Source of the DNA: Candidatus Bathyarchaeota archaeon
GTDB lineage: Archaea; Thermoproteota; Bathyarchaeia; Bathyarchaeales; Bathycorpusculaceae
Length of the DNA: 64,000 nt
NCBI GenBank assembly: GCA_963717465.1
Contig: OY970340.1
Span: 1,280,001 to 1,344,000 of the forward strand
Direction of reading: 5' to 3'
Below, one piece after another: positions 17,636 through 25,462 of this stretch. The position numbers were made by a program, and so were the translations under genes. Position 1 is the stretch's first letter, and the number at the start of each line of letters is the position of its first letter. The notes below the pieces were generated by a model that was not told the DNA's origin, did not search any database, and saw nothing but the letters and a program-made list of their open reading frames with translations.

Positions 17636-18082
17636 ATGAAATGTCCCTATTGTGGCTCTGAAAATTTCAAAACGTTGGAGACACGCGATTCCCCAGAGAA
17701 CACTACGCGTAGACGGAAAGAGTGCATCAGTTGCAGTAAGCGCTTTACAACTTACGAGTACTTGGAAACTATAGAGTTTATGGTGAAAAAGAAAGATGGT
17801 AAGCTTGAGCGTTTTGACGTTAACAAGATAATTCGAGGTCTACAAAAAGCGTGTGAAAAAAGACCTGTAACTATGAATCAAATCAACGAGTTAGCAGCCC
17901 TTGTGCGGCAAGACCTCATGATTAAAGGTGCAGAAGAAGTTGCGTCTCAAGAAATCGGGGATTTAGTAATGAAATACCTTAAAAAAATTGATAGAATAGC
18001 GTACATCCGATTTGCCTCAGTTTATAAAGAATTTGAGGAGCCTGAAGATTTCAGGCGGTTATTGCTTGAGGTGAAAAAATGA
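17636..18082 (+). CDS. nrdR: Transcriptional repressor NrdR
   Basis: MKCPYCG..TRD..RRRKEC..CSKRFTTYE zinc ribbon, ATP cone, AYIRFASVY. Confidence 0.97.
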   Translation: MKCPYCGSENFKTLETRDSPENTTRRRKECISCSKRFTTYEYLETIEFMVKKKDGKLERFDVNKIIRGLQKACEKRPVTMNQINELAALVRQDLMIKGAEEVASQEIGDLVMKYLKKIDRIAYIRFASVYKEFEEPEDFRRLLLEVKK

Positions 18083-20211
18083 AATATGTATTAAAAAGAG
18101 ATAGTAAACTAGAACAATTCGATCAAGAAAGAATTACAACCGCCATTTGGAAAGCGGCTAAAGCCGTTGGCGGAAAAGATAAAGAGCAAGCGAAAAGAAT
18201 AAGCGACGAGGTAGTTGTTGAGCTTCACAAACGCTTCGGCGAAGACGGAGTGCCTACTGTTGAAGAAATTCAAGATATCGTTGAAAAACGGTTAATTGAA
18301 AATGGACATGCACAGACAGCTAAAGCCTACATCCTTTACAGAAAGCAGCATAATGATATGCGTGAGTTAGCTGCACTTTTAAGCTCTGCAGATATGGTGG
18401 ACCAGTACCTTGAGGTCGAGGACTGGCGTGTTAAAGAGAACTCGAACATGAGTTATTCACTTCAGGGTTTAAACAATTATTTATCATCAACTGTTATAGC
18501 GAAATACTGGATATCCCGAATTTACCCATCGAATATTGCTGACGCCCACTTTTCAGGCGACATTCATATCCATGACTTAGGCGTTCTTGGACCATACTGT
18601 GTTGGCTGGGATTTAAGCGACCTACTACTTTCAGGATTCGGCGGCGTCTCGGGAAAAATTGAAAGCAAACCAGCAAAGCATTTCCGCACAGCTTTAGGTC
18701 AAGTTGTGAATTTCTTCTATACGCTGCAAGGTGAAGCTGCAGGCGCTCAAGCATTCAGCAACTTTGACACTTATCTTGCACCATTCATACGGTACGATAA
18801 CTTAAACCAAAAAGAAGTGGAACAGGCACTGCAAGAATTCTTTTTCAACATGAATGTTCCAACAAGAGTTGGTTTTCAAACACCATTCACGAATTTAACT
18901 TTGGATTTAACAGTTCCAGACTTCATGAAGAACGAGGCAGTTCTCTACAACGGTAAACTTGCTCCTGACACGTACGCTGACATGTCTAAAGAGATGGAAA
19001 TGTTCAATTCAGCTTTCGCAGAAGTCATGCTTCAGGGAGATTCTAAAGGCAGAGTCTTCACTTTCCCAATACCCACCTACAATATCACCAAAGATTTTGA
19101 TTGGGATCAAAAGTTGCAAAAGGAATCTTTGAAGTAACAGCCAAGTACGGCGTGCCCTACTTCTCAAACTTCATCAATAGCGACATGAAACCAGAAGATG
19201 TTCGAAGCATGTGTTGCCGCCTTAGAATAGACAACCGTGAACTGCGCAAACGAGGCGGTGGATTCTTCGGCGCTAATCCACTCACAGGCAGCATAGGCGT
19301 AGTTACTCTGAACATTCCAAGAATTGGCTACCTATCAAAGAACGAAGACGAATTCTTCGAACGCCTAGGAAATGTTATGGACGTTGCTAAATCAAGTTTG
19401 GAAATTAAACGTAAGATGCTTGAAGCATTTACCGACAATGGTCTTTACCCCTATTCACGACATTACCTACGCCACATTAAAGAAGGCTATGGAAAATACT
19501 GGAAGAACCACTTCGCAACCATAGGTGTAGTCGGAGTAAACGAAGGCGTCATTAACCTGTTAGGCCAAAATATTGCTACAAAAGAGGGGCAGAACTTTGC
19601 AGTTAAAATGCTCACTTTCATGCGCAATCGCTTATCAGACTATCCAAGGGGAAACAGGAAACATCTACAATCTTGAAGCAACACCCGCAGAGGGGACATC
19701 TTATCGCCTTGCACGCATCGATAAACGCCGATACCCAGCTATAATTATGGCAAACCAAAAACAGGTGATAGCAAATCATGCAGAGCCATTCTACACTAAC
19801 TCTTCACAGTTACCAGTAGATTATAACGGCGACTTGTTTGAAGCATTGGAGCACCAGGAAAGCCTTCAAACACTGTACACGGGAGGAACAGTATTCCATA
19901 TTTTCCTTGGCGAACGACTGCATTCTTGGCAATCAGCTGCTGAATTAATCAAGAAAGTCGCGTATAATTCCCATTTACCATACTTCACGTTAACGCCTAC
20001 ATTCAGTATTTGCCCGACACATGGTTACACAAGCGGTGAACATTCACAATGTCCAATCTGTGGTTCAAAAAGCGAAATCTACTCTCGAGTTGTCGGCTAC
20101 TTAAGACCAGTTGACCAATGGAACGATGGAAAACAAGCAGAATTCTCAATACGCAAAACCTTCGACAAATCAACCATGATGAATACCGTACCTATGCCCA
20201 TTTCAACTTAA
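18079..20211 (+). CDS. nrdD: Class III anaerobic ribonucleoside-triphosphate reductase, two frameshifts (~19110, ~19645)
   Basis: ATP cone, HIHDL, PYCVGW, FTFPIPT, SMCCRL, NLEATPAEG, CxxH/CxxC, glycyl radical motif YSRVVGYLRP. Confidence 0.96.
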
Positions 20212-20224
20212 GTGAGCCTGAAAA

Positions 20225-20902
20225 ATGAAGTTCTGCGGCATCCAAAAAACCAGCTTAATAGATTACCCTTCCAAAGTAGCTAGTGTACTATTTACGCCAG
20301 GCTGCAACTTGCGGTGCCCGTTTTGCTACAACTGGCGAATAGCAGTCGACCCTCAACCGCCTTTCTTGCAGGAAGCAGTTGCATTAGAAATTCTTGAAAG
20401 CCGCAAGAAATATGTTGATGCTGTTGTGGTTACAGGCGGGGAGCCATGCATGAATAAAGATTTACCAAAGTTATTAGCGAAGCTTAAGGAGCGTGATTTT
20501 TTGGTTAAGCTCGACACAAACGGGTTCTATCCAGACGTGCTGGAAGAATGTTTAGGAACCGTAGATTACGTGGCAATGGATGTTAAGACAAGTGCTGATA
20601 AATACAAGCTGGTGGGTGCTAAGGACACGACTGGGTTCATGAAGAGCATTGAAATGCTGAAAACAGGCAAAGTACCATACGAGTTTCGAACCACGGTTGC
20701 TCCAGAAATTATAACCGCTCAAGACATCGTACGCATTGGCGAAATGGTAAAGGAAGCAAAAACATTCGCTCTACAACAGTTTATTCAAAAAGACACTTTG
20801 GAAAAAAGATTTGAAACACTCACGCCCTACACTCCAGAAACCATCAAAGAGTTCGCTGAAGTGCTGAAGAAATATTCAGAGCAAGTGATTTTACGCATTT
20901 AG
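20225..20902 (+). CDS. nrdG: Anaerobic RNR activating radical SAM protein
   Basis: SLIDYP, GCNLRCPFCYN, TGGEP, KLDTNG, EFRTT. Confidence 0.95.
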   Translation: MKFCGIQKTSLIDYPSKVASVLFTPGCNLRCPFCYNWRIAVDPQPPFLQEAVALEILESRKKYVDAVVVTGGEPCMNKDLPKLLAKLKERDFLVKLDTNGFYPDVLEECLGTVDYVAMDVKTSADKYKLVGAKDTTGFMKSIEMLKTGKVPYEFRTTVAPEIITAQDIVRIGEMVKEAKTFALQQFIQKDTLEKRFETLTPYTPETIKEFAEVLKKYSEQVILRI

Positions 20903-23871: not shown

Positions 23872-24129
23872 TTACAGTATTGACGGAAGTGACTTGCGAA
23901 GTTCGATGTAAATTCTTCTTCCTTCTTCAGTCAAAAGGCAGCAGTTTTCAGTAGTTTCTTTTATTAATTTCTTGTCCTCTAGATACGTTAAGTGTTTTAG
24001 AAAATCGTCGTAGGAAAGATTTGTCGATTTTCTCCAGATTGCAGTTCTCAATTGTGGCTTTGGGCTGAAGAATAGATACTCCAGAATTTCAAATCGAATC
24101 TGGGCGGCGCTTTTTCTGGGTTTTCCCAT
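23872..24129 (-). CDS. Small winged-helix regulator (HTH_45-like)
   Basis: RKSAAQIRFEIL..NLSYDDFLKHLTYLEDKKLI..LTEEGR. Confidence 0.85.
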   Translation of the reverse strand: MGKPRKSAAQIRFEILEYLFFSPKPQLRTAIWRKSTNLSYDDFLKHLTYLEDKKLIKETTENCCLLTEEGRRIYIELRKSLPSIL

Positions 24130-24334
24130 TTCTAAGGATGCACCAAGACAGTTGAGGCTAACTAGTTAGGCAAGTATATAAAATGGCATCCTCAATCTGT
24201 TGCTGTTTCCTACTATCTTAAGTCATCTTTGATGAGAGTGAGCAAATAAAAATGTATTGCTGGGTTGTGCAGTAGGGAAAAGTTTAAGGGACATGTTTGT
24301 TTTATGGTTTCGCGTAATCTTTGAGGTTTGTAGT

Positions 24335-24887
24335 TTGAGTCCTAAAATGCAATCAATCGAGGAACGCAAAGCGGAAGTCCTAATTAAACTTAAGAAAATA
24401 CAAGCTTATAAAAAAGGAGAAGTTTGAAGAAGCCCTCGCTTACATCATTGATATTCCACAGGATAAAGAGAAAGCTCTTGTCTGGTGTATTCCTGGGGAG
24501 GCAACCGTCGGTATTGCTGCTATGAATACGTTGTATAAGATAATGAAAGAAAAGGAAATTGAACGTGCCATAGTAGTTACGGAGGGACGATACACGCATG
24601 CTGTTAAACTTGTGGCAAAAAAGAAGAACGTGGAGTTGCTTCCAAAGTCGTTTCCAGTATTTGATATTTTCGAGCATGCGCTTGTGCCATTTCATGAGAT
24701 TTTGAGTGAAAAAGAAAAGAATGCGTTACTCGCGCAATTCAGGGTTCAACCGTATCAGATGCCTCAAATAAAATCAGCTGACCCCGCGGTCAAAGCAATA
24801 GGTGCTAAACCAGGCGATATTCTAAAAATAACCCGGAAAAGCGCAACAGCTGGAGAGCACGTTACCTTCAGGTACGTTGTAGAATAA
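24335..24887 (+). CDS. rpo5: RNA polymerase subunit Rpo5 (RpoH) with RPB5-like N-terminal domain, frameshift near 24392
   Basis: C-domain HALVPFHEIL..MPQIKSADP..GAKPGDILKITRKSATAG..FRYV; ~105 aa N-extension restored from TTG 24335 / ATG 24347. Confidence 0.92.
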
Positions 24888-24901: not shown

Positions 24902-25462
24902 TTATTTTGCAACAATAATTTCTGTTGATTTTATAATTGCTGTAACTTCATCGCCGACTTTTATATCTAAGTCTTCAACTGCTTCTTTAGTTATTACTGA
25001 CGTAATGGTAACTGGCATTTTTACTTCCACCTTAACTTTTGCTGTGATAACGCCTTTTTCAACAGATACTACTTTTCCTTTTAACTGATTTCTTGCACTT
25101 AACTTCAATTCTCTCACCTTCAAACTATTTGGCTCAGATAAGACTTTATTCAAGTACGTTTCTACTTGCCTAAACTCTGCGAGCAAACTTTTCCCAAGGT
25201 CAGTGAGGATTGCGCCGCCTCCGCCTGATTTGCCGCCTTTGTAGGTTTCAATGATCGGAGCTTCTACTGCATTTTGTATGTCTTGAAGGTAATTCCAAAC
25301 GTAACGGTATGACATCCCTAAGTTTTCTGCTGCTTTAGAAATGGATTTTTCTTTTTCTATTTGTTGAAGAATTTCTGCGCCGCCTTCGCCTATGACTGGA
25401 TTGCCTTTGTATTCAATCCAAATTTTGCAGGAGAGCTTGTGCTTCTTGTTTGCTAGCATCAA
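24902..25462 (-). CDS. ModE-like HTH plus TOBE molybdate-responsive regulator
   Basis: SISKAAENLGMSYRYVW, GGKSGGGAILT, SARNQLKG, SVIT, IKST. Confidence 0.9.
   Translation of the reverse strand: MMLANKKHKLSCKIWIEYKGNPVIGEGGAEILQQIEKEKSISKAAENLGMSYRYVWNYLQDIQNAVEAPIIETYKGGKSGGGGAILTDLGKSLLAEFRQVETYLNKVLSEPNSLKVRELKLSARNQLKGKVVSVEKGVITAKVKVEVKMPVTITSVITKEAVEDLDIKVGDEVTAIIKSTEIIVAK

Follow-up and report, generated by a model that had tools for sequence, protein, structure and literature searches.

Does an archaeal RNA polymerase possess the N-terminal jaw module of RPB5, which is described as eukaryote-only in the accessible passages of PMC1802627, PMC3906176 and PMC3424549? The question is raised by an rpo5 (rpoH) gene in a 64 000-nucleotide stretch of a Candidatus Bathyarchaeota genome (contig OY970340.1, positions 1 280 001–1 344 000; hereafter the window), for which a two-domain architecture had been predicted from the DNA alone. 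The features of the locus, in window coordinates, are as follows.

24335..24887, + strand: rpo5/rpoH in its long, two-domain form; encodes 183 aa, like its relatives, once the one extra base of the assembly is removed.
24392..24393, + strand: AA where same-genus relatives have a single A; the surplus base shifts the reading frame within helix 1 and is probably an error of assembly.
24335..24653, + strand: N-terminal domain (residues ~1–106); PD-(D/E)XK/Mrr-like fold without the catalytic motif, helix 1 ending in L-R-x-Y.
24660..24878, + strand: C-terminal assembly domain (PF01191, positions 1–73 of 73), with the five yeast-critical residues kept.
23872–24129, − strand: winged-helix protein (HTH_45), divergent from rpo5.
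24902–25462, − strand: ModE-type regulator (HTH and TOBE), convergent on rpo5, 14 bases from the rpo5 stop.

On the + strand, a TTG at 24335 is followed by LSPKMQSIEERKAEVLIKL, which resembles the N-terminus of the relatives' protein up to 24392. This first frame meets a stop soon after 24392, and the homologous text resumes in the following frame, open for 167 codons from 24384 until its stop at 24885–24887. The proposal that dropping one base near 24392 yields a protein of ~183 aa is borne out: without the extra base the span is 552 nt, or 183 aa plus a stop, the same length as in close relatives such as P0009 (89% identical to the window product), and the frame runs through the site uninterrupted in 22 loci from 21 genomes of the same genus, each with a single A where the window has AA at 24392–24393. 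Relatives were collected at an E value of 0.001, which 1213 of 1254 candidate proteins passed. Open frames of at least 180 aa were present for 34 of 36 Rpo5 matches, the two exceptions being the window gene and one frame of 55 aa. The extra A is very probably an assembly error, because the 21 same-genus genomes are in frame and the assembly is prone to frame breaks, with 9 of 39 testable loci changing frame relative to their relatives (some of these may be gene junctions or true pseudogenes). A frameshift that is real in the strain would leave a pseudogene or a 121-aa product from the ATG at 24522 (half of the N-domain plus the C-domain), and we regard this as decidedly improbable. The ATG is indeed in frame, one public read run (15% of words; contigs mostly less than 90% alike) gave no cover at 24330–24433 and the genome is 88% complete; against this, the flanks of the extra base are both ~89% identical to intact relatives, the assembly breaks frames elsewhere and no other rpo5 was found in the genome. 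Within the window itself, the nrdR–nrdD–nrdG cluster (17636–20902, + strand) has nrdD in three frames, probably owing to assembly indels. An SMC-like gene near the rpo operon (G000:C1:1791314–1793232, − strand) is also apparently split into two ORFs.

The canonical assembly domain expected after the extension is present as residues 109–183. The C-terminal 73 aa of the product match PF01191 with an E value of 1e-28 (100.4 bits against a cut-off of 23.5), and the product scores 102.4 against NCBIfam PRK09570 (cut-off 83). Residues His114, Pro118, Asp149, Arg167 and Arg179 (P0009 numbering) are invariant in 22 of 22 diverse long-form rows and map at a constant offset to yeast His147, Pro151, Asp182, Arg200 and Arg212, which, in the passages available from PMC1802627, bind Rpb1 and are critical in yeast. 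A search of the same genome (one contig, 88% complete) with PF01191 gave one match among the 12 candidates scored, namely the window rpo5, so the second short rpo5 that had been suspected elsewhere did not appear. The surmise that rpo5 does not lie upstream of rpoB proved correct: rpoB starts at G000:C1:1780199 with no rpo5 before it, and rpoB and the fused rpoA are ~475 kb from the window rpo5. The ModE-type neighbour recurs in many relatives (for example L003, L010, L012, L016, L017 and L019), and a promoter scan, limited to sigma-70 sites, returned chance levels. As the only copy found, the long Rpo5 appears to be the working RNA polymerase subunit of the cell, presumably a stoichiometric one.

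The N-domain (residues 1–106) is predicted to be a PD-(D/E)XK domain with a pLDDT of 91.7. Superposition of this domain alone gives a Z score of 10.6 with AF1548 (PDB entry 1y88; r.m.s.d. of 2.6 over 97 residues), 9.5 with NucS and 8.8 with RPB5 (r.m.s.d. of 3.6 over 100 residues), and EndoMS ranks first in a Foldseek search. The superposition proposed as a check of the original prediction therefore fails to favour RPB5, and the modelled fold of the N-domain does not by itself separate RPB5 from nucleases. Among Bathyarchaeia N-domains, Pfam assigns Mrr_cat (PF04471) to 21 of 21, the inactive family NA-iREase1 to 21 of 21 and RNA_pol_Rpb5_N (PF03871) to 0 of 21, and a PF03871 search of the window's own genome gave no match; a comparison of these Pfam families, the other check proposed, thus points away from RPB5, a misleading outcome. 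The Mrr_cat match, which exceeds the Pfam cut-off, and the resemblance of the fold to NucS, AspBHI and MspJI would also suit an active nuclease tethered to the polymerase for repair or defence. This is extremely unlikely given that the catalytic D...(E/Q)xK is found throughout the Mrr outgroup (9 of 9 rows) but in no row from Bathyarchaeia, where those positions are mostly Trp and Ile, and that the inactive family matches every Bathyarchaeia N-domain. In Asgard rows, 11 of 26 retain the catalytic Asp alone.

Sequence profiles are more selective than the fold. Searched against PDB sequences, a profile of 21 Bathyarchaeia N-domains retrieves RPB5 as the top 7 of 18 matches (best E value 1.2e-4), and a profile of 25 Asgard N-domains, built with no eukaryote in it, retrieves RPB5 as the top 12 of 45 matches, with no nuclease listed. 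The Asgard profile matches human RPB5 over residues 13–116 with an E value of 3.3e-9, aligning its own R-G-Y with DRGY and leaving a 21-residue eukaryotic insert; these HMMER results reproduce the alignment of the extension with human RPB5 that had been made by eye. The Bathyarchaeia and Asgard N-domain profiles match each other at 99.8%. In the reciprocal direction, a profile of 58 eukaryote/giant-virus-type N-domains places the window ORF first of 18 127 ORFs of its own genome (34.8 bits, the next at 13.7; E value 1.5e-8), with medians of 36 bits for 145 Bathyarchaeia rows and 28 bits for 118 Asgard rows versus −1 to 20 for 20 Mrr-like outgroups; this test is inflated because the 58 domains were themselves picked with the Bathyarchaeia profile. 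The arginine at the end of helix 1, aligned to human DRGY, is kept in fused N-domains (22 of 22 long-form rows and 24 of 25 Asgard rows) and is not found in stand-alone or active Mrr rows. Those two alignments are used here in place of a count in the row set that was anchored on the motif, which is biased by the loss of four rows (three of which show the motif on inspection). In yeast Rpb5, the passages available from PMC1802627 report that the first helix and Arg26 of DRGY are essential and that charge reversal at Arg26 is lethal. The model of the full-length long form has a pLDDT of 84; Foldseek ranks 1–34 are all RPB5 or its ASFV homologue (TM score 0.59–0.77), and the whole chain superposes on RPB5 with a Z score of 15.2 (173 residues, r.m.s.d. 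of 3.3). At the level of sequence, eukaryotic RPB5 jaws are the closest relatives of the N-domain among solved structures. Profiles, reciprocal match and full-length model together uphold the predicted two-domain RPB5-like architecture, and the homology of the extension to the RPB5 jaw, as judged from sequence, is well supported.

How widespread the long form is bears on its origin. In Bathyarchaeia it was scored as a match with an E value of at most 5e-45 and full coverage; 237 of the 251 genomes searched gave a match, and 143 of the 237 carry the long form, including all 68 of the window's own order and whole further families, with one family mixed. None of 113 genomes of other Thermoproteota has it (no open frame exceeds 157 aa), and the N-domain profile gave weak matches only. 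The Asgard archaea, reached via a Jordarchaeales record, comprised 97 long and 39 short forms, three unclear cases and two genomes without a match among 141 genomes scored by open frame, and the Asgard long forms fetched score 21–89 bits with the Bathyarchaeia N-domain profile. The Heimdallarchaeia-titled class is uniformly long (70 of 70), while the Loki-like class is split between 72 short and 7 long (n = 79). Cluster names with the long form add Hodarchaeales and Helarchaeota, and seven further two-domain representatives, one of them named Helarchaeota, match neither the Bathyarchaeia nor the Asgard set above 45%. Named records that carry the long form belong mostly to Bathyarchaeia and fall with the relatives of the window gene in the N-domain and full-length trees. 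The archaeal long forms are deeply diverged, with ~30 clusters at 50% identity.

Where the domain is gained, the place in the operon is lost: rpoB directly follows 75 of 76 short forms and 0 of 241 long ones. The count covers distinct sequences with at least 300 bases downstream, which are kin and not independent events, and omits 16 ORFs dropped for want of the anchor motif, among them seven from Asgard that are long and not beside rpoB. A genome with both forms, the intermediate to be expected, did not come to light among the Bathyarchaeia and Asgard genomes searched. In five multi-hit Bathyarchaeia genomes the second rpo5 was a contig-end fragment, a copy split over two frames or a paralogue, with no short copy beside rpoB, and the 11 short-form genomes among the 31 Asgard genomes searched gave no N-domain match. 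In entire lineages of Bathyarchaeia and of Asgard archaea, the long form stands in place of the short form linked to the operon; the short form most likely represents the earlier state in archaea, with the long form behaving as a separate gene that displaces it.

Several variants were seen alongside. L387 (G058) is the only short form without an rpoB match behind it; its family also has long-form genomes, and it is possibly a long form minus the N-domain. Of the 139 Asgard genomes that gave a match, 11 have long-form rpo5 as a tandem pair (L200, L203, L211, L217, L219, L244 and L250). In the Heimdallarchaeia-titled class, L265, L271, L273, L278 and L280 encode Rpo5 proteins of 440–500 aa with two or three stacked N-domains before the assembly domain, and the divergent Asgard long forms L275, L276, L277 and L279 have an insertion of ~25–30 residues near the end of the C-domain.

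The N-domain also occurs outside Rpo5. A 185-aa paralogue (G000:C1:2677417–2677971, − strand; L392, relatives L311–L315) combines the same N-domain with a cysteine-rich C-terminal part that replaces the Rpo5 domain. It has no NCBIfam match and is found in 42 of 251 genomes of the class, 40 in long-form families and two in a short-form family; in the N-domain tree it nests within the fused clade beside one Bathyarchaeia long-form subtype (95/88). A stand-alone Mrr-like protein of ~115 aa (G000:C1:68356–68715, − strand; L317–L321 and L327), conserved in Bathyarchaeia and other Thermoproteota, has a degenerate catalytic motif and a tree branch of its own.

The N-domain tree comprised 79 rows and 102 columns with 16 Mrr-like outgroup rows, all from Thermoproteota, after the exclusion of four rows without the anchor motif, three truncated rows and two more before tree building. 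In it, the Bathyarchaeia, Asgard and eukaryote-type domains and the cysteine-rich paralogue family form one branch apart from the Mrr-like rows (99/95). The phylogeny called for by the original prediction accordingly groups all fused domains, with one derived paralogue; AU tests did not reject separate recruitment from a stand-alone family, either for the Bathyarchaeia domain (p = 0.08) or for the eukaryotic domain (p = 0.305). In the careful version of the tree, eukaryotes fall weakly outside all archaeal domains (70/78), with no nesting within Asgard. For the C-domain, a tree built by a quick method from 109 rows and 76 columns leaves 64 of 106 forks open and does not unite the long forms. 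A full-length tree, built from 61 long forms with eukaryotes as the root, places 19 of the 20 Bathyarchaeia rows within Asgard, beside Jordarchaeia-like rows (94/89); it does not show which way any transfer went, because forcing the Bathyarchaeia rows into one group costs 0.75 log units (p = 0.48). One Asgard-assigned genome (G590) has a long Rpo5 (L185) that groups inside Bathyarchaeia, reflecting either transfer or bin contamination. On the Rpo1 tree, long-form Bathyarchaeia split into two well supported clades, which are united in 0% of 200 bootstrap trees. A few Rpo1 columns (for example K1090, N/H1228, E1237, P1240 and S1253; fragments L391 and L393–L418) distinguish the 13 long-form from the 14 short-form genomes compared, an effect inseparable from kinship.

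A single fusion event likely lies behind the fused N-domains, with either transfer or differential loss accounting for their present distribution. The same or a closely related inactive Mrr-like family could instead have joined Rpo5 more than once, in Bathyarchaeia, Asgard and proto-eukaryotes, so that the domains are homologous and the fusion is not. Such a history would suit the patchy distribution, including the two Rpo1 clades and the mixture of long and short genomes inside one Asgard class, as well as the two AU values and the non-Rpo5 protein with the same N-domain, present in two genomes of a short-form family; the stacked N-domains of some Asgard proteins imply that the domain moves. 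Parallel fusions are nevertheless unlikely, since the long forms share equal length, an equal junction and, in 241 of 241 cases, loss of the operon position; moreover, the motif arginine sets fused domains apart from stand-alone or active Mrr rows, the paralogue branches from within the fused clade, as neighbour of a single Bathyarchaeia subtype, and a search of short-form Asgard genomes found no free copy of the N-domain.

The jaw could also be a eukaryotic invention that passed late from early eukaryotes or giant viruses to archaea. Eukaryotes do stand weakly outside the archaeal N-domains, and the nearest ESM Atlas clusters of the N-domain are giant-virus and eukaryotic RPB5_N (0.85–0.86), which we treat as a lead only. 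Yet no archaeal row falls within the 15 eukaryote-type rows (99/95; 100/99), archaeal forms are without the ~20-residue eukaryotic insert and nearer Mrr_cat, as expected of an older state, and the divergence of the long forms is deep, with fixation in whole classes; late transfer is very unlikely. The jaw half of RPB5, long called eukaryote-only, probably arose in archaea. The claim that the jaw predates eukaryotes is well supported by the presence of the long form in most Asgard genomes sampled and throughout the Heimdallarchaeia-titled class, while the AU values leave a single fusion no more than likely.

Taken together, the locus is best read as a working two-domain Rpo5 with a dead nuclease domain as its jaw, fused once outside the operon and displacing the short copy, a reading that we consider quite probable. 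Its C-domain would dock on Rpo1, as in every archaeal polymerase; by analogy with the RPB5 jaw, the dead nuclease domain may run along the lower jaw, grip the duplex DNA downstream and present factors with a surface. In yeast, the RPB5 module contacts DNA ~15–20 nt ahead of the bubble, according to the available passages of PMC1802627. As to history, a single fusion of an inactivated Mrr-type domain to a second rpo5 copy would have taken place away from the rpoH–rpoB operon, the fused gene would then have displaced the short operon copy and eukaryotes would later have gained ~20 residues after helix 1. A fuller account, which we favour with more reserve, derives RPB5 directly from such an operon-independent Rpo5: the two-domain form would have originated once, in archaea, when a dead Mrr-type domain was captured, would be the norm in the Asgard class nearest eukaryotes and would have ousted the essential operon copy on several occasions, among them a transfer into Bathyarchaeia. 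The downstream cleft region is filled by Rpo13 in Sulfolobus (passages available from PMC13257274), and by analogy the long Rpo5 may be a second answer to the need met there by Rpo13. A predicted complex between the isolated N-domain and Rpo1 residues 780–1270 scored 0.00 against a mark of 0.32; the controls did not fold, and the result is evidence neither way.

Prior reports of such a protein are few. A literature search of incomplete coverage found no paper describing a two-domain archaeal Rpo5. The passages accessible from a 2026 survey of archaeal polymerase subunits (PMC13257274) hold no mention of a long Rpo5, nor do those from PMC7289017, PMC13556214, PMC13607799, PMC13539645 and PMC12993045 or from the preprints 10.1101/2020.10.19.343400 and 10.1101/2023.07.11.548585, and the supplements of PMC10307638 gave 0 matches. 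Supplementary Data 3 of a 2026 paper (PMC12962969) lists the Asgard long-form subunit H as 'iESP' with POLR2E as its best structural match, over ~170–190 residues; the POLR2E matches belong to proteins labelled HeGe, HeHe, HeKa and Thor and the Loki entry matches archaeal rpoH only, in agreement with the long/short distribution counted here. The main text of that paper has 0 occurrences of RPB5, POLR2E, RpoH or 'RNA polymerase', and its accessible passages concern the Asgard pangenome, with nothing on Bathyarchaeia, the origin of the domain or the operon position. Whether the protein had been reported before, a point that the original prediction left unchecked, thus has a divided answer: Asgard copies were already tabulated, undiscussed, and no description of the two-domain archaeal protein was found. 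An archaeal jaw would mean that the eukaryotic ancestor had a polymerase already nearer to Pol II than model archaea lead one to expect, and would make it possible to trace how a mobile nuclease-fold domain became an essential piece of the enzyme. The near-perfect link between gain of the domain and loss of the operon position makes this a clear case of displacement of an essential core subunit.

Among known systems, the Mrr_cat and NA-iREase1 domains, AF1548 (1y88) and NucS/EndoMS (2vld and 5gkj) share the common fold (Z scores of 9.5–10.6) and Pfam similarity with the window N-domain. Mrr-type nucleases differ in carrying D...(E/Q)xK and in forming a separate tree branch, and AF1548, NucS/EndoMS and the Mrr types were not retrieved by the archaeal N-domain profiles in the PDB sequence searches. 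Canonical archaeal Rpo5/RpoH (PRK09570; PDB entries 4qiw_H, 8cro_H and 2waq_H) shares the C-terminal 75 residues (TM score of 0.9 on the target, r.m.s.d. of 1.3–1.6) and, as here, is single-copy in the genome; it is a one-domain protein of ~75–90 aa encoded directly upstream of rpoB, whereas the long form adds a 105-residue N-domain and lies outside the rpoH–rpoB operon. The long-form C-domain is nearer archaeal RpoH (about 55–60% identity) than eukaryotic RPB5 (30%). Eukaryotic RPB5/RPABC1/POLR2E (PF03871 and PF01191; PDB entries 1dzf, 8uhd_E, 9mu7_E and 7eu0_E) has the same order of two domains, and both proteins have a PD-(D/E)XK N-domain without the catalytic motif, a helix 1 that closes with R-x-Y, V-G-[IV] ahead of helix 2 and the five critical C-domain residues. 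Unlike RPB5 (205–215 aa), the long Rpo5 is about 25–30 residues shorter, is without the ~20-residue insert after helix 1 and has no PF03871 match; the Asp of DRGY is replaced by Leu in Bathyarchaeia, and the long Rpo5 serves one polymerase where eukaryotic RPB5 serves three. Without bearing every mark of the eukaryotic family, this archaeal Rpo5 is built like RPB5 and probably works like it.
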